A DNA stretch of 64,000 nucleotides, taken from the NCBI GenBank assembly GCA_035524955.1, contig DATLFG010000072.1:66173-130172 (forward strand). Reading direction: 5' to 3'. The translations under genes were made by a program, and so were the position numbers. Positions 8,276-51,135 of the stretch are shown in pieces (the stretch's first letter is position 1; each line of letters begins with the position of its first letter). The notes under the pieces were generated by a model. It was not told where the DNA came from and made no database searches. It worked only from the letters and a program-made list of their open reading frames with translations. This DNA comes from Candidatus Limnocylindria bacterium. Lineage in GTDB: Bacteria; Methylomirabilota; Methylomirabilia; Rokubacteriales; CSP1-6.

Positions 8276-9174
8276 CACAGGCTCGATCCAAGGAGCACGA
8301 CGTCCGATCGATCGCGCACCACTACGACGTCTCGAACGACTTCTACGCGCTGTTCCTCGACCCCCTGATGGTCTACACCTGCGCCTACTACCGCGACGCG
8401 GACGGCAAGCTCGAGCAGGCGCAGGAGGACAAGCTCGATCTGGTCTGCCGCAAGCTGCGGCTGCAGGCCGGCGAGCGGGTGCTCGACATCGGCTGCGGCT
8501 GGGGCGGTTTCAGCATCTGGGCCGCCCAGCACTACGGCGTCCGCGCCCACGGGGTCACGCTCTCGAAGGCGCAGGCGGAGTGGGCGGCCGCGCGGATCAA
8601 GCGGGAGGGGCTCGAGGAGCAGTGCCTGGTCGAGTACCGCGACGTCCGGGACCTGCCCGCGGACGCCCGCTACGACAAGATCGCGGCGATCGGGGTCATC
8701 GAGCACGTGGGCATCCCGAACTACCCGTCTTTCTTCGGGCGCGTGAAGGAGATGCTGGTGGACGGGGGGCTCTACCTCAACCACGGCATCCACCACGAGT
8801 TCCACTGGAAGCGCACGAGCCAGACCGATTTCCTGTATCGCCACGTGTTCCCGAACGGCGATCTCTCGGGAGTGACCGAGACGCTCACCGAGATGGAGCG
8901 GGCGGGCTGGGAGCTGCTGGACCTGGAGAACCTGCGGCCGCACTACGCGCGGACGTGCCGCGAGTGGGCGGAGCGCCTCAAGGCCCGCGCGGACGAGGCG
9001 CGCGCGATCGTGGGCGAGCAGATCTACCGGACCTGGCTGCTCTACCTCACGTGCTCGTCGGTGGCTTTCGCAAGCGGCTCCATCGGCCTCTATCAGGTGC
9101 TGATGCAGAAGCAGTGGGACCGCGCGCGCGGCCCCGCGCCCACGACCCGCGAGGACATCTACGCCGGCTGGTAA
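8272..9174 (+). CDS. Cfa-like SAM-dependent methyltransferase (catalytic domain of cyclopropane/methylene fatty-acid synthase, mycolic acid cyclopropane synthetase fold)
   Basis: …HYDVSNDFYALFLDPLMVYTCAYY…VLDIGCGWGGFSIWAA…IAAIGVIEHVG…YRHVFPNGDL… carries the CMAS/Cfa hallmarks. ATG overlaps the upstream TGA. Confidence 0.85.
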   Translation: MTQARSKEHDVRSIAHHYDVSNDFYALFLDPLMVYTCAYYRDADGKLEQAQEDKLDLVCRKLRLQAGERVLDIGCGWGGFSIWAAQHYGVRAHGVTLSKAQAEWAAARIKREGLEEQCLVEYRDVRDLPADARYDKIAAIGVIEHVGIPNYPSFFGRVKEMLVDGGLYLNHGIHHEFHWKRTSQTDFLYRHVFPNGDLSGVTETLTEMERAGWELLDLENLRPHYARTCREWAERLKARADEARAIVGEQIYRTWLLYLTCSSVAFASGSIGLYQVLMQKQWDRARGPAPTTREDIYAGW

Positions 9175-9268
9175 CTATCGGAGGGGGCCTCGGCGGCCCC
9201 CTCCGGGCCTCCCCCCGGTAGCTTGCGCCGGCAAAGGCCGGCGTTCGAACGAAAGCAACGAATGGAGG

Positions 9269-19769: not shown

Positions 19770-20651
19770 CTAGACCCGGCGCACGGTGGTGCGACCGAAG
19801 AGGCCGCTGGGTCTCACGAGCAACACGATGATGATCATGGCGAGGGCGACGGTCAGCTTGAGCTCGGTCCCGATGAAGGACACGTAGGTCCCGACCAGGT
19901 TCTCCGTCACCCCCACCAGGAAGCCGCCGACCACCGCGCCGAGCGGGCTCGTGAAGCCGCCGACCGTCGCCGCCGCGAAGGCATAGATCTGGATGCCGCC
20001 CATCATGTTCGGGTCCAGGAAGACCACCGGGGCGACCATCATCCCCGCCACCGCGCCGAAGGCGGCGGCCAGCCCCCACCCGAGCCCGAGCATCCAGCTC
20101 ACGCGGATGCCGCAGAGCCGGCTCGAGACGGGGTTCTGCGCGGCGGCGCGCATGGCGAGCCCGAGCGTCGTGTAGCGGAAGAAGAGGAAGAGCAGAAGCA
20201 GCACGACGAGCGTGATGCCGATCGCCCCCAGGTCGTGAGCGCCGAAGACGATGTTACCGATTTTGATCGGCCTGGACGGGAAGGGGCTCGGGAACGGCTT
20301 CTGGATGTACGAGTAGATCCAGCCGGCCACGCTGGTGAAGATGACGAGCAGCCCCAGGGTCACGATCACGATGGTGAGGATGGGGGCGCCCTCGACCGGT
20401 CGGATCACCACCCGCTCGATCAGCAGCCCACCCACGAAGGCGATGACCACCGTCGCGCCGAACGTCACCCAATAGGGCACACCCGCCTGCAGCAGCGACC
20501 AGGCGATATACGTGCTGAACATCGCCATGTTGCCCTGGGCGAAGTTCACGACGTCGGTGGCCTGGTAGATCATCACGAGGGCCAGGGCCAGGCTCGCGTA
20601 GATGCCCCCCGTCGCGAGCCCGGAGACGACTTGCTGGATGAAGATGTCCAT
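19770..20651 (-). CDS. livH: Branched-chain amino-acid ABC transporter permease LivH
   Basis: MDIFIQQVVSGLATGGIYASLALALVMIY… is LivH-like. Confidence 0.85.
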   Translation of the reverse strand: MDIFIQQVVSGLATGGIYASLALALVMIYQATDVVNFAQGNMAMFSTYIAWSLLQAGVPYWVTFGATVVIAFVGGLLIERVVIRPVEGAPILTIVIVTLGLLVIFTSVAGWIYSYIQKPFPSPFPSRPIKIGNIVFGAHDLGAIGITLVVLLLLFLFFRYTTLGLAMRAAAQNPVSSRLCGIRVSWMLGLGWGLAAAFGAVAGMMVAPVVFLDPNMMGGIQIYAFAAATVGGFTSPLGAVVGGFLVGVTENLVGTYVSFIGTELKLTVALAMIIIVLLVRPSGLFGRTTVRRV

Positions 20652-20653
20652 TT

Positions 20654-20895
20654 TAACTGGGGGGGAGCGGGCGCCGCTCCTCCCCCAGACCCCTCCACCG
20701 CTTCGTACGCGACCCAGACTGGTTCATCGTCCTTAACCGGGGGGGAGCGGGCGCCGCTCCTCCCCCCAGACCCCCCCACCGCTCCGTACGCGACCCCGCC
20801 TGGTTCATCGTCCTTAACCGGGGGGGGGAGCGGGCGCCGCTCCTCCCCCCCAGCCCCCCCGCTCCGAGGCGGATGCTGATCGGTTCATGTTCGGT
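20654..20895. repeat. Tandem direct repeat (~80-bp unit, about 3 copies). Each copy carries a GC-rich hairpin with variable homopolymer G/C tracts. Lies inside the liv operon between livF and livH.
   Basis: Unit ~TAACYGGGGGGGAGCGGGCGCCGCTCCTCCCCCCAGACCCCCCCACCGCTYCGTACGCGACCCNGMCTGGTTCATCGTCCT. G-tract lengths are 7, 7 and 9. A further GGTTCATG motif recurs at 20883 and 20932. Confidence 0.8.
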
Positions 20896-20954
20896 TGCGT
20901 CCGCCTCACGCTTTGGTGCCGCATGCCGGTCGGTTCATGGTGGTCGCTGTCTCC

Positions 20955-21668
20955 TCAGTAGCCGAGATAGGAGCGCCGGATCGCGTCATTCTTCTTCAGA
21001 TCGGCGGCGGGGCCGGACATCACCACCCGTCCGGTCTCGAGCAGGTAGGCGTGGCCGGCCAGATCGAGCGCCATCGCCGCGTTCTGCTCCACCAGCAGCA
21101 CGCTCACGCCCTCCTGCTGGTTGATGGTCTGCACGATGCGGAAGATCTCCCGGACCACGAGGGGGGCCAGGCCGAGCGAGGGCTCGTCGAGCAGCAGGAG
21201 CCGCGGGCGCGACATGAGCGCGCGCGCCACCGCGAGCATCTGCTGCTCGCCACCCGAGAGCGTCCCCGCCTGCTGGCGGCGGCGCTGCGCGAGCACGGGG
21301 AAATACTCGTAGATCTTCTCGTAGTCCTCCGCGAGGCCGGACTTGTCCCGGCGCGCGTAGGCGCCGAGCTTCAGGTTCTCCTCCACCGAGAGATCCACGA
21401 AGGTTCCCCGGCCCTCGGGGGTGTGGGCGATGCCGAGCCGGACGATGTCCTCGGTGGTCTTGCCGTCGATGCGCCGGCCGTCGAAGCGCACCTGGCCGCT
21501 GGTCCGGATCATCTTGCAAACCGCCCGGAGCGTGGTCGTCTTGCCGGCCCCATTGGCACCCAGGATCGTGGTGATCCCGCCCGCTTCCACCCCGAAGGAG
21601 AGCCCGTGCAGGACCTTGGTCGATCCGTACTGCGCCTCCAGGTCCTGCGCCTCCAGCAGGGCCGGCAT
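20955..21668 (-). CDS. livF: Branched-chain amino-acid ABC transporter ATP-binding protein LivF
   Basis: Walker A (GANGAGKTT), LSGGEQQ signature and C-terminal …RRSYLGY. Confidence 0.85.
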   Translation of the reverse strand: MPALLEAQDLEAQYGSTKVLHGLSFGVEAGGITTILGANGAGKTTTLRAVCKMIRTSGQVRFDGRRIDGKTTEDIVRLGIAHTPEGRGTFVDLSVEENLKLGAYARRDKSGLAEDYEKIYEYFPVLAQRRRQQAGTLSGGEQQMLAVARALMSRPRLLLLDEPSLGLAPLVVREIFRIVQTINQQEGVSVLLVEQNAAMALDLAGHAYLLETGRVVMSGPAADLKKNDAIRRSYLGY

Positions 21669-22450
21669 CAGGCCGCGCTCCCGAGATAGGCGCGGATCAC
21701 TTCGGGATCGCGTTGCACCGCGGCGGGTGGCCCCTCCGCGATTTTGCGGCCGAAGTCGAGGACCACCACCCGGTCGGACACCTGCATGACCAGACTCATG
21801 TGGTGCTCGACGAGGAGCACGGTCACACCCCGTCGATCGCGGATGGCCCGGAGGATGGCGCCGAGCGCGGCGACCTCCTCGTGGTTCAGGCCGCCCGCCG
21901 GCTCGTCGGCGAGCAGGAGCTTGGGCGTGCCCGCGAGCGCCCGCGCCAGCTCCACGCGCTTCAGCGTGCCGAACGGCAGGCCCGCGGCGCGATGCGCGGC
22001 GACGCGCTCGAGCTCGAGGAAGGCGATGACCTCCATCGCGACCTCTCGCATCATGCGCTCCTCGCGGCCGACCGACGGCAGGCGGAGCGCGTTGCTCAGG
22101 AAATCGCTTCCGGTGCGCGCGTGCACGCCCACCATCACGTTCTGCAGCACGCTCATGCTGGGGAAGAGCGCGAGGTTCTGGAAGGTGCGGCCGATGCCGA
22201 GGGCGGCCACGTGATGCGGGGTGTCGCGGATGATCGACTTGCCCTCGAAGACCAGGTCGCCGCTGTTCGGCGTGTACAGCCGGCTCACGCAGTTGAACAG
22301 CGTGGTCTTGCCCGCCCCGTTCGGGCCGATCAGCCCGACGATGTGGCCCGCCGCCATGTTGAAGGAGACGTCGTCGAGAGCGACGATACCCCCGAAACGC
22401 ATCGAGACGTTCCGCACGGACAGAATATCGGCGCCCACGGCCGCAGTCAC
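21668..22450 (-). CDS. livG: Branched-chain amino-acid ABC transporter ATP-binding protein LivG
   Basis: …MRFGGIVALDDVSF…[15 protein letters not shown]…LADEPAGGLN… is LivG-like. Start at a GTG. The stop overlaps the livF start (ATGA). The track ORF 21668..24784 is a large over-extension. Confidence 0.8.
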   Translation of the reverse strand: MTAAVGADILSVRNVSMRFGGIVALDDVSFNMAAGHIVGLIGPNGAGKTTLFNCVSRLYTPNSGDLVFEGKSIIRDTPHHVAALGIGRTFQNLALFPSMSVLQNVMVGVHARTGSDFLSNALRLPSVGREERMMREVAMEVIAFLELERVAAHRAAGLPFGTLKRVELARALAGTPKLLLADEPAGGLNHEEVAALGAILRAIRDRRGVTVLLVEHHMSLVMQVSDRVVVLDFGRKIAEGPPAAVQRDPEVIRAYLGSAA

Positions 22451-22459
22451 GGTTCGTAT

Positions 22460-22489
22460 CTTATAGGGGGTGGGCGGCGCTTTTGTCAA
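22460..22489 (-). promoter_or_regulatory. Candidate sigma70 promoter for the liv operon (TTGACA-N18-TATAAG). It would give a near-leaderless transcript.
   Basis: On the minus strand, TTGACA lies at 22489-22484 and TATAAG at 22465-22460, about 9 nt upstream of the GTG start. Confidence 0.35.
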
Positions 22490-22525
22490 TCCTAAACGCC
22501 ACTTCGCTGGTATGATCCGGGGTCT

Positions 22526-24205
22526 ATGGCGCACCAGTACATCTTCGTGATGAAGGACCTGAAGAAGATCGTCCCGCCCAAGCGGGAGATCCTGAAGGGC
22601 ATCTGGCTGTCGTTCTACCCCGGGGCCAAGATCGGCGTGATCGGTGGTAACGGCGCGGGCAAGAGCACGCTGCTGCGCATCATGGCCGGCGTGGACACGG
22701 ACTTCCTGGGCGAGGCGTGGCCCGCCGACGGCGTACGGGTGGGCTATCTGCCGCAGGAGCCCCGGCTCGATCCCGCGAAGGACGTCCGCGGCAACGTCGA
22801 GGACGGCGTCGCCGATGTCCGCGGCCTGCTGACCCGCTTCGACGAGATCAACGCCAAGCTGGGCGAGCCCCTCGACGATGAGGGCATGGAGAAGCTTCTC
22901 GCCGACCAGGCGCGGGTGCAGGACGCCATCGAGGCGGCCAACGGCTGGGACCTGGACCGGACGGTCGAGATCGCGATGGACGCCCTCCGGTGCCCGCCGG
23001 GTGACGCGGACGTGGGGACCCTGTCCGGCGGCGAGGTCCGGCGCGTCGCCCTCTGCCGCCTGCTGCTCCAGAAGCCCGATCTCCTGCTGCTGGACGAGCC
23101 CACCAACCACCTCGACGCGGAGTCGGTGGCCTGGCTCGAGCGGTTCCTCAAGGAGTACCCGGGCACGGTGGTGGCGATCACCCACGACCGCTACTTCCTG
23201 GACAACGTGGCGGGCTGGATCCTCGAGCTGGACCGCGGCGCGGGCATCCCGTGGGAGGGCAACTACACCTCCTGGCTCGATCAGAAGAAGCAGCGCCTCG
23301 CCGTCGAGGAGAAGCAGGAGACCGCGCGGCAGCGCACGCTCGAGCGCGAGCTCGAGTGGGTGCGCATGTCGCCGCGCGCGCGCCAGGCCAAGTCCAAGTC
23401 GCGGCTGCAGGCCTACGAGCAGCTGCTCGCGGAGGGCGGCAGCGACCGCGAGGGGCAGGCCGAGATCATCATCCCGGCCGGGCCGCGCCTCGGCGACGTG
23501 GTGGTGCAGGCCGAGCACCTCGTCAAGGGCTACGGCGACCGGCTGCTGATCGAGGATCTCTCGTTCAGCCTCCCGCGGGGTGGCATCGTCGGCGTCATCG
23601 GCCCCAACGGGGCGGGCAAGACCACGCTCTTCCGCATGATCACCGGCCAGGAGAAGCCCGACCGCGGCAGCCTCCAGGTGGGGGAGACCGTGCGCCTGGC
23701 CTCCGTGGACCAGAGCCGCGACTCCCTCGATCCGTCCAAGAACGTCTGGGAGGAGATCTCGGGCGGCGCCGAGCAGCTCCAGCTCGGCACGCGCCAGATG
23801 GCCTCGCGCGCCTACGTGGCCTCCTTCAACTTCAAGGGCTCCGACCAGCAGAAGAAGGTGGGCGATCTCTCCGGGGGCGAGCGCAACCGCGTGCACCTGG
23901 CCACCCTGCTCAAGAGCGGCGGCAACCTGCTGCTCCTCGACGAGCCCACCAACGACCTCGACGTGGACACCCTGCGAGCCCTCGAGGACGCGCTGCTGTC
24001 CTTCGCGGGTTGCGCGGTGGTGATCAGCCACGACCGCTGGTTCCTCGACCGGGTCGCCACCCACATGCTGGCCTTCGAGGGCGACAGCCGGGTGGCCTGG
24101 TTCGAGGGCAACTATGAAGACTACGAGGCCGACCGGCACAAGCGGCTGGGCGCGGCCGCCGACACCCCGCACCGCATCCGGTACAAGCCGCTCACCCGCG
24201 GCTAG
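22526..24205 (+). CDS. ettA: ABC-F family translational throttle ATPase EttA (YjjK)
   Basis: [55 protein letters not shown]…. Two ABC domains, with an EttA-specific arm and linker. Confidence 0.9.
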
Positions 24206-24224
24206 CCTCGGGGAGGGCCCCGCC

Positions 24225-24857
24225 ATGTTCAAGGACACCGTGACGTCCCGGGAGGAGCTCCGCGCCATCTTCGGGGCACCCATGGAGCGCGCCGTGCTCA
24301 AGGAGCGCGCGAGCCTCGACGTCCACTCTCGTGCCTTCATCGCCGCCGCGCCCTTCGTGCTGATCGCCACCTCGGGCGCGGCCGGGCGCTGCGACGTCTC
24401 GCCCAAGGGCGACGCGCCCGGCTTCGTGCTGGTGGTGGATGACCACCACCTGGTAGTGCCCGACCGCCCCGGCAACAACCGCATCGACGGGTTCACCAAT
24501 ATCGTGGAGAACCCGCACGTGGGTATGATCTTCCTGATCCCCGGCCGCGAGGATACTTTGCGCGTCAACGGCCGCGCCTGCATCGCACGGGACGCGGAGA
24601 TCCTGGCGCGGCTCGCGGTGCAGGGCAAGCGGCCCAAGGTCGCGATCGGAGTGGAGGTGGAGGAGTGCTTCCTGCACTGCGCGAAGGCCTTCAAGCGCTC
24701 CGGCCTCTGGGAGCGGGAGCACTGGCCCGACGTGGCCGGGCTGCCCTCGATGGCGCGGATGCTGTGGGACCAGATCGAGGCCAAGCCGGCCGGGCACGCC
24801 TGCGTCGAGGACTACGAGCGCGACCAGCAGGAGCGCTTGCGGAAGACGCTCTATTGA
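24225..24857 (+). CDS. PPOX-class (pyridoxamine 5'-phosphate oxidase-like) FMN-binding protein
   Basis: …FIAAAPFVLIATSGAAGRCDVSPKGDAPGFVLVVDDHHLVVPDRPGNNR… is an MSMEG_1061-type flavoprotein sequence. Confidence 0.6.
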   Translation: MFKDTVTSREELRAIFGAPMERAVLKERASLDVHSRAFIAAAPFVLIATSGAAGRCDVSPKGDAPGFVLVVDDHHLVVPDRPGNNRIDGFTNIVENPHVGMIFLIPGREDTLRVNGRACIARDAEILARLAVQGKRPKVAIGVEVEECFLHCAKAFKRSGLWEREHWPDVAGLPSMARMLWDQIEAKPAGHACVEDYERDQQERLRKTLY

Positions 24858-37026: not shown

Positions 37027-37125
37027 GTCCGCGGACGGGGGGAGTGCGGGGGCCAATTGCGGCGATTCCACCCAGGTAAAGTCCGCGGACGGGGGGAGTG
37101 CGGGGGCCATTTCTGGGCCCCCGCA
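37027..37125. repeat. REP-like element family 1, two tandem copies (54-nt period). Core GGGAGTGCGGGGGCC-ATTTCT-GGCCCCCGCA.
   Basis: Copy 1 at 37027-37064 is degenerate in its right arm. Copy 2 at 37081-37125 is intact. Related copies lie at 45343-45413 and 48855-48886. Confidence 0.7.
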
Positions 37126-37129
37126 TACA

Positions 37130-48784: not shown

Positions 48785-48936
48785 GGCGCGGTGACTGGGC
48801 GTTGCGCCCGGTTGCGGGCAGCCTCTCTATCCGCCTCGGTTGTCCGCGGATTGAGGGAGTGCGGGGGCCATTTCTGGGCCCCCGCATTGGATAGAGAAGC
48901 TCCCCGCATCCAGGCGCAACGCGCGGTCACCGCGCC
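48785..48936. repeat. Composite nested palindrome containing a REP family-1 copy
   Basis: Outer arms GGCGCGGTGACTGGGCGTTGCGCC / GGCGCAACGCGCGGTCACCGCGCC. Inner arms CTCTCTATCC / GGATAGAGAAG. Core GGGAGTGCGGGGGCCATTTCTGGGCCCCCGCA at 48855-48886. Confidence 0.7.
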
Positions 48937-51032: not shown

Positions 51033-51042
51033 TCCGTCACAC

Positions 51043-51135
51043 TCACGCCTCACCACACCAACCCCCTCACCCCTCACCACACGAACCCCTCACCACACGA
51101 ACCCCTCACCCTACCCTCTCCCCTGAGGGGAGAGG
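51043..51135. repeat. REP-like element family 2 (CCTCACCACACGAAC direct repeats plus a CCCTCTCCCC-TGA-GGGGAGAGGG palindrome)
   Basis: Same palindrome as at 5145-5167, in opposite orientation relative to the GTGAGGGG-type flanks. Confidence 0.6.

Follow-up and report, generated by a model that had tools for sequence, protein, structure and literature searches.

According to one review, mycobacterial interspersed repetitive units (MIRUs) lie as tandem units of variable number in the spacers of operons and carry a small open reading frame (ORF) coupled to the start of the downstream gene (PMC12548453, citing Supply 1997), with insertion presumed to take place at start codons at little cost (PMC12548453); MIRUs have been described as confined to mycobacteria (PMC6286618). 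Repetitive extragenic palindromes (REPs) are 20–40 nt long with a stem of 8–9 bp and fall into superfamilies tagged with GTAG or CGTC (PMC3733652). In this study, we describe a 64-kb stretch of DNA (hereafter, the window; contig DATLFG010000072.1 of assembly GCA_035524955.1, Candidatus Limnocylindria bacterium), in which the spacer between a livF-like ABC ATPase gene and a livH-like permease gene holds a repeat array. As judged by alignment with copies in other genomes, this array consists of a dispersed ~81-nt element, common in Rokubacteria (Methylomirabilota), repeated three times head to tail. Our preferred reading, to which we give a probability of roughly 60%, is that the element is mobile, resembles both MIRUs and REPs, and can persist at junctions with translational coupling since ribosomes read through it.

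In terms of layout, the mycobacterial MIRU is the closest analogue of the Rokubacteria element. Both consist of units of tens of bases (a criterion of ~46–101 bp, with 81 here), which are placed head to tail in the orientation of the genes within an intra-operon spacer, and in both the end of the unit ORF is coupled to the downstream start, as is predicted from sequence in our case. The copy number is also strain-variable in both, the Rokubacteria spacers being 146, 202, 298 and 303 nt beside an identical LivH, and for both, start codons are the presumed point of insertion, so that expression would be little disturbed. Furthermore, the 13-mer GGAGGAGCGGCGC is common to the element, MIRU motif A and MIRU292; alignment with MIRU scored 24–27 against ~15 for shuffled sequences, a level reached by 0–9 of 1000 shuffles, but the similarity is confined to one short block and is no more than suggestive of homology. 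One subfamily of the element was separately noticed to have GGCGCCG..ACGAT in common with MIRU at similar spacing. A BLAST search with a MIRU dimer against plasmids gave no match. The two repeats nonetheless differ in several respects: the host is Rokubacteria and not a mycobacterium, the core of the Rokubacteria element is a 14-bp G/C hairpin, and the coupling to livH has a 1-nt gap instead of the −4 overlap (elsewhere in the family, −1 or −4 is seen). MIRUs are said to lack obvious palindromes.

The array was detected by Tandem Repeats Finder at 20653–20860 with a period of 81, 2.6 copies, 92% matches and a score of 340, and is by far the strongest tandem array of the window; this agrees with the three units of ~80 bp reported in the first-pass annotation, which had been made from the letters of the window without database searches. 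Each of the three ~81-nt units has one 14-bp G/C hairpin. The palindrome noticed in each of them corresponds to the 26-mer core GGGGGAGCGGGCGCCGCTCCTCCCCC, which occurs exactly three times in the window (at 20661, 20741 and 20824) and not once in 100 shuffles of it, the G+C content of the window being 72%. The tracts of 7, 7 and 9 G and of 5–7 C across the three units on the plus strand were likewise as described.

It had also been proposed to look for other copies of the unit. While a covariance-model search of the window gave no copies beyond the three units, with its weak matches belonging to other hairpin families, the 23-mer hairpin core GAGGAGCGGCGCYCGCTCCCCCC was found at at least 119 stretches in about 40 metagenome-assembled genomes (MAGs), often on many contigs per MAG; the scan covered one genome per species, and the number of stretches is a lower bound. 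Among the matches listed, nearly all hosts were labelled Rokubacteria, Rokuibacteriota or Methylomirabilota, and the few in bins named Acidoferrum, Verrucomicrobiia, Deferrimicrobiaceae and delta proteobacterium may be binning errors. A BLAST search of a two-unit stretch against plasmids and phages gave no match, and Rfam gave none in the whole window at the gathering score and only a chance microRNA match (E 0.21) in a permissive search of the spacer.

The element is composed of a loosely conserved 5' module, a G-rich box CGGTGGGGGGG, the hairpin and a short tail with stop codons. Across 114 aligned copies, the conserved part runs from the box through three variable bases and the stem-loop to three further variable bases, which form pairs with the earlier ones; the 14-bp stem has a single bulged A and closes on a loop of 3 nt, and pairing is kept in 98.5% of cells. 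The three outer pairs covary (e.g., GC 49, CG 34, UA 15 and AU 3), with shuffled and slid controls being far lower, whereas the inner stem is uninformative in this respect, having been set by the search pattern itself. The lengths of the G-run and the C-run change in step, namely 5/5 in 52 copies and 4/4 in 49. Because the loop-closing pair is G–U in 98 of the 114 copies, furthermore, pairing is expected on one strand only, which is usually that of the mRNA. RNA folding, a check that had been suggested beforehand, gave about −30 kcal/mol for the hairpin. A G-quadruplex in the G-rich box and an origin of the element from the IS200/IS605 transposon family were also thought of as candidates, the latter for the TCAA-like tails.

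In the subfamily with a conserved 5' module (AGAGCGCGTGAAAGAATCG...), the copies are exactly 81 nt in 13 of 17 cases. Unit 3 of the window aligns end to end with such long-form copies from other genomes, and the array hence consists of three complete elements and not of a hairpin with its local flank; GTGAA of the long form is GATGAA in the window, the change that makes the ATG. The left flank of the long-form copies ends with CT[C/G], which together with the first AG of the element gives CT[C/G]AG, a pentamer that recurs directly after the right end, with the C/G varying in step on both sides. This looks like a short target duplication with a stop codon (TGA or its complement). Small non-autonomous modular repeats with a variable internal module, which are co-transcribed and affect expression, are represented by BOX in Streptococcus pneumoniae and by miniature inverted-repeat transposable elements (MITEs) such as Correia; the Rokubacteria element is likewise a small modular repeat whose short direct repeat at the ends suggests target duplication. 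It differs from them in that the whole unit and not an inner module is repeated and in having no terminal inverted repeats; indeed, the ends of the 81-nt consensus (AGAGCGCGTGAA... and ...GACGTTGA) were not complementary by inspection.

In terms of location, 46 copies between co-directional genes were in the sense orientation and 8 in antisense according to rough gene calls, and most copies end 8–15 nt ahead of the start of the downstream gene, nearly filling the spacer. Tandem arrays of the family are present at other loci as well (L041, L049, L063, L097 and L118). These features would fit an element that inserts, in a mobile-like manner, at stop/start junctions of co-directional genes and then amplifies locally in tandem. 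As an observation of its own, one orthologous junction carries the element in opposite orientations between MAGs (L129 versus L036, L056, L064, L095 and L121), which points to independent insertions or to an inversion.

Eight contigs from soil metagenomes (L001–L008) encode a LivH identical to that of the window, and their livF–livH spacers (Table 1) differ in length from the 303 nt of the window. From this comparison, the array is a true copy-number polymorphism and not assembly noise. The first-pass annotation had allowed for such noise, and an artefact in which a single unit was falsely expanded to three would be conceivable in that short-read metagenome assemblers can mishandle 81-nt tandem repeats and that L004 and L005 have odd partial units. 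The independent assemblies nevertheless give alleles of one, two and three units; one of them, L003, shows three units in the same layout but carries substitutions of its own; within the window, the units differ from one another at several positions; and the one-unit allele is a separate haplotype, in which the upstream module is another one. We consider the probability of such an artefact to be negligible.

The same contigs bear on another idea in the first-pass annotation, namely a phase-variable switch in which slippage in a G- or C-run shifts the frame of a mini-ORF and turns the coupling to livH on or off. Runs of 5–9 G or C do lie within the mini-ORFs, tract lengths vary from one unit to the next and, for units 1 and 2, also set the window apart from L003, and in the relative L042 a G8 in place of G7 breaks the frame. 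In the livH-proximal unit, however, the tract lengths (G7/G5/C7) are equal in all eight contigs with identical LivH, with the window having one G-to-A change, and what varies among these contigs is the number of units together with substitutions. The differences in the distal units accompany substitutions and so look like divergence; besides, two of the three frames after the hairpin reach livH, so that a slip of 1 nt would often have little effect, and some of the MAGs are nanopore assemblies, which are prone to homopolymer errors. Switching by slippage is, in our view, barely credible for this locus.

We also scanned metagenomes with the conserved 5' end of livH, which gave 72 contigs. In most of them, the livF stop lies 0–25 nt ahead of the livH ATG (0 nt in 13 contigs and 1 nt in 9), and we infer that this close junction is the ancestral state. 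The close junction and the TGATG overlap of livG and livF in the window bear out the earlier claim that the repeats break up an operon that is otherwise coupled. Element-bearing spacers of 140–300 nt are a minority (L135, L142/L170, L163, L169/L171/L192 and L154). In L186 (Ga0210138_1001957), a 228-nt livF–livH spacer has three tandem units with a period of ~62 nt and a diverged version of the hairpin, which is an independent amplification in another lineage. In L178, a related contig without the element, TGAGGAGACCAG...ATGGAC stands at the place of the first mini-ORF of the window; the former livH start site may therefore be the one at which this mini-ORF (ATG at 20938) now begins.

Three mini-ORFs, A to C in Table 1, lie on the minus strand of the spacer in the window. 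The first-pass annotation had described a further GGAG-preceded frame directly after livF, and this is mini-ORF A, the ATG of which is 16 nt past the livF stop with a GGAG (20954–20951) 12 nt ahead of it. It had also assigned to each unit a short frame with its own Shine–Dalgarno (SD) sequence, ATG and terminal TAA. The frames are indeed present, but that of unit 2 is not ended by its own TAA, which is put out of frame by the homopolymer lengths; it instead joins the frame of unit 3 (internal ATG at 20727) to give mini-ORF C of 51 amino acids, whose TAA (20655–20653) is 1 nt ahead of the livH ATG. The proposed SD sequence did not hold, either: AAGGACG is just 2–3 nt from each unit ATG and is therefore a poor SD sequence. 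On the mRNA strand, the 3' end of the unit 3 hairpin is 7 nt ahead of the livH AUG, and no SD sequence is present between that hairpin and the livH ATG; the binding-protein gene, by contrast, has GGGAGG 6 nt ahead of its ATG. An amino-acid-sensing leader peptide was also considered and finds no support, as no run of Leu/Ile/Val codons exists in mini-ORF A (MNRPACGTKA), MNRSASASERGGWGGGAAPAPPPG or the 51-residue ORF.

Among the earlier observations, the mini-frames are the part with the best comparative support, as far as can be judged from the orthologous junctions. The last mini-ORF ends 1 nt ahead of the livH ATG in all element-bearing alleles and species except L042, with the stop being TAA, TAG or TGA depending on the lineage, and the upstream mini-ORFs at this junction are joined by ATGA overlaps. 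The spacings of the mini-ORFs (23, 23, 35, 47, 35, 68, 23 and 53 nt among others) leave a remainder of 2 upon division by three in nine out of nine cases. At a second orthologous junction, where the upstream gene ends with ...CTCGACTGA and the downstream gene begins with ATGCCC.G.AAGCTCGCGCCCGAC..., divergence is complete from the upstream stop up to the element; the stop-to-stop lengths of 62, 77, 80, 83, 86, 110 and 116 nt are nonetheless all 2 modulo 3, the one exception being 100. At most of these loci, the start of the mini-ORF overlaps the upstream stop (TGATG, ATGA or GTGA) and its stop overlaps the downstream start; TAATG overlaps also occur at other junctions. By our own estimate, six or more insertions and deletions would all be multiples of three without a reading-frame constraint with a probability of (1/3)^6 ≈ 0.001, which makes chance unlikely. 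Conserved chains of ORFs and a constraint on spacer length are seen at these two junctions. We separately noticed that, in four MAGs, the downstream gene has, right after the mini-ORF stop, CTG (L076, L081 and L120) or ATC (L030) in place of the ATG of its orthologues, which could be either restart at a non-canonical codon or sequence error.

In a gene for a BcrAD_BadFG ATPase, furthermore, the element of five MAGs (L022, L038, L125, L040 and L046) lies in frame and encodes a 28-residue N-terminal extension (...ERWGGLGEERRSLPPS...), which starts at an ATG overlapping the upstream stop, with the conserved domain beginning at residue 29. Since four of the five genes have no other start codon ahead of the conserved domain, the element must be translated there. 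Palindromic repeats that are in frame and translated are also known among Rickettsia palindromic elements (RPEs) and other intragenic REPs; the window copies differ from RPEs in forming separate intergenic mini-ORFs rather than intragenic inserts, and no sequence relationship exists between the two.

These copies also bear on whether the hairpins act as a terminator lacking a U-run (I-shaped), an attenuator or an RNase processing site, so that the message would drop at each hairpin and the copy number would set the amount of livH message. Three strong hairpins on the mRNA strand would suit such a role, and high-GC bacteria are reported to use terminators without U-runs. Nevertheless, the hairpins are followed by AGUUAAAAUG or GGUUAAGGACG with no U-run after any of them, a scan for promoters and terminators found none and no terminator-like site in 20300–21300, most copies are placed just ahead of a downstream gene whose expression is required, and in the BcrAD_BadFG genes the element is within the coding sequence. 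The attenuator suggested in the first-pass annotation and an intrinsic terminator are hence not supported by the sequence, and we regard termination or processing as very unlikely.

In our preferred reading, an 81-nt repeat would have entered the livF/livH junction and later been amplified in tandem, leaving one to three units depending on the strain. With a stable hairpin so close to an AUG that has no SD sequence, free ribosomes should not initiate there, and livH initiation would depend on the ribosomes translating the mini-ORFs. Ribosomes arriving from livF, or loading at the GGAG-preceded first mini-ORF, would translate the short frames through the units, melt the hairpins, terminate at the UAA 1 nt ahead of the livH AUG and restart by termination–reinitiation. 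The mini-ORFs would thereby relay translation across the insert, so that livH, livM and the binding-protein gene stay expressed. Each extra unit probably lowers the livH yield, and the ATPase-to-permease ratio may thus be tuned by copy number.

Several points weigh against this reading. In a frame-shift control with the 46 sense copies, a shift of 1 or 2 nt was introduced in the loop and a chain of ORFs was sought from the upstream stop to the downstream gene; chains with gaps of up to 10 nt were found in 24 of 46 real copies versus 18–19 shifted ones, chains with gaps of up to 25 nt in 34 versus 26, and tight coupling with ATG only in 14 versus 7 and 14, none of which is significant. Part of the reason is that, past the hairpin, two frames out of three lead to the gene in any case, one stopping beside the start and the other being in phase with the gene. 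Translation paths arise readily in GC-rich DNA. With antisense copies, a bridging ORF on the gene strand was seen in just two out of three testable cases. The orthologous series were chosen after inspection of the data, and, in an automatic count over all sense copies, the stop-to-stop remainders favoured 2 by 11:5:3, with start-codon calls being unreliable. In the window, the chain of mini-ORFs is loose, with gaps of 16, 17 and 5 nt and frames that vary by unit, while among relatives the frame is broken by G8 instead of G7 in L042 and L058 has ACG where the others have ATG. The mini-ORF peptides have no detectable homologues in Pfam and phmmer: the 51-residue ORF gave no Pfam match and, against 1.84 billion representatives, two weak phmmer matches, the query being too short to be informative. 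As for mobility, no transposase, terminal inverted repeat or pair of empty and filled sites has been demonstrated, transposases not having been searched for. Support for the relay is hence confined to particular orthologous junctions and does not extend to a rule for all copies.

Given the insignificant frame control, it is also worth weighing whether the element is an ordinary REP-type repeat, selfish or structural, in which the hairpin shields the livG–livF message from degradation by 3' exonucleases or is a partial block to transcription or translation, so that the levels of ATPase and permease differ, with the mini-ORFs being accidents of GC-rich DNA. Among the roles offered in the first-pass annotation, the REP type comes closest: the family is dispersed throughout the phylum in high copy number, mostly intergenic, and palindromic with a covarying and very stable hairpin. 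REPs and bacterial interspersed mosaic elements (BIMEs) are likewise high-copy, dispersed, imperfect palindromes; they lie for the most part between co-directional or convergent genes, and their proposed action is at the RNA level (PMC3733652). The two kinds of repeats are also alike in being probably transcribed and in having some copies inside ORFs. What does not fit is the conserved unit of 81 nt, far above the size of a REP, the 14-bp stem of nearly all G/C and the alignment of the element, in which no unpaired GTAG tag is present; CGTC appears only on the complementary strand of the GAC subfamily, where it is base-paired, and the window copies have CTG/CAG or CCGG. The element furthermore nearly fills the spacer up to the next start, while REPs hug the upstream stop, and it is mostly single or head to tail and not in inverted dimers. 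Length differences in multiples of three at two orthologous junctions, the stop kept beside the livH ATG in three codon forms, and the in-frame element of BcrAD_BadFG genes with no alternative start also argue against a purely REP-type role, which we find unlikely but deserving of serious weight. The two views are compatible, in that the hairpin could stabilize the RNA and still be translated through.

The genes around the array are in the order livG, livF, the spacer, livH, livM and the binding protein, all on the minus strand. The livF-like and livH-like products score under the NCBIfam equivalog cut-offs; the names LivF and LivH hence denote the branched-chain amino acid type, a substrate not being proven by such scores. 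Features of the junction are collected in Table 1.

Table 1. Features of the livF–livH junction in the window and spacers of contigs with an identical LivH
Feature	Position or contig	Strand	Remarks
livF-like ABC ATPase gene	20955..21668	minus	NCBIfam LivF/UrtE matches, E 2e-70; stop TGA 20957-20955
livF–livH spacer, 303 nt	20652..20954	minus	whole feature inside
Mini-ORF A, 10 aa (MNRPACGTKA*)	20906..20938	minus	truncated head module; head homologous to start of mini-ORF B (direct repeat)
Array unit 1, 80 nt	20814..20893	minus	carries mini-ORF B; covariance-model match 20809-20873, 57 bits
Mini-ORF B, 24 aa	20888-20814	minus	stop TAA; inside unit 1; ORF scan
Unit 1 hairpin	20820..20850	minus	inverted repeat; stem backed by family covariation
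Array unit 2, 81 nt	20733..20813	minus	covariance-model match 20726-20793, 64 bits
Mini-ORF C, 51 aa	20808-20653	minus	ATG 20808 in unit 2, on into unit 3; ORF scan
Unit 2 hairpin	20739..20765	minus	inverted repeat; stem backed by family covariation
Array unit 3, 81 nt	20652..20732	minus	covariance-model match 20646-20712, 75 bits
Unit 3 hairpin	20659..20685	minus	inverted repeat; folding ~-30 kcal/mol
livH-like permease gene	19770..20651	minus	ATG 20651-20649
146-nt spacer	L001, L002, L006, L007		one unit + hairpin-less module
202-nt spacer	L004
298-nt spacer	L003		three units, own substitutions
Incomplete spacer	L005		partial unit present
No spacer	L008		contig begins at livH

Several other features were noticed along the way. 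In the mechanical ORF list, a 1038-residue frame at 21668–24784 (minus strand) ends at the livF start; related contigs have there a livG of 244–260 residues and, on the other strand, an ABC-F type gene of 559 residues, and the long frame is by these gene calls a GC-rich artefact. A second G/C hairpin, GAGTGCGGGGGCCATTTCTGGGCCCCCGCAT, has identical copies at 37096–37126 and 48857–48887 (plus strand), 11.7 kb apart, with none in shuffles, and is probably another small dispersed repeat family of this genome. A third hairpin family, CGCCGGC(T/C)TT(T/C)GCCGGCGCAA, often follows TTCGAG and adjoins the main element in several Rokubacteria loci; it was seen at 9150–9245 (minus strand) of the window, where the copy has one extra base and then a further hairpin, GGAGGGGGCCGCCGAGGCCCCCTCC, as well as in L092, L093, L098, L099 and L134 and in the left flanks of L015, L019, L040, L046, L091 and L112. 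Perfect short tandem repeats of ACCCCTCACCACACGA (2.6 copies, 51042–51110, plus strand) lie in a C-rich stretch, overlap an array with a 24-nt period and are unrelated to the element.

No description of this repeat family was found in the searchable literature on Rokubacteria repeats, on REPs and translational coupling or on Rokubacteria coding density, while its kind, MIRU-like and REP-like, is known. Looking for further MIRU sequences brought nothing more to the comparison. One could go further and suppose that the Rokubacteria element and the mycobacterial MIRUs represent one old, cross-phylum class of mobile "coupling cassettes", which target stop/start junctions, bring their own relay frame and keep the downstream genes translated; the strand-specific hairpin would then have been added here as a handle for a mobilizing enzyme, and the number of units would be a heritable dial for the subunit ratios of an operon. 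This extension is, in our estimate, distinctly improbable.

If our preferred reading is true, MIRU-style repeats would not be an oddity of mycobacteria, and carrying a frame that hands on ribosomes would be a recurrent way for a mobile repeat to survive inside operons, with the present example coming from a soil phylum that is uncultured and has large genomes. The junction would also offer a natural case of a very stable hairpin 7 nt before a start codon with no SD sequence, in which the dependence of reinitiation on upstream translation is testable. The 81-nt arrays would furthermore serve as strain markers (variable number tandem repeats) for Rokubacteria populations in soil metagenomes, and, as gene callers would mis-annotate such spacers and the adjoining N-termini, knowing the family would improve the annotation of the phylum.

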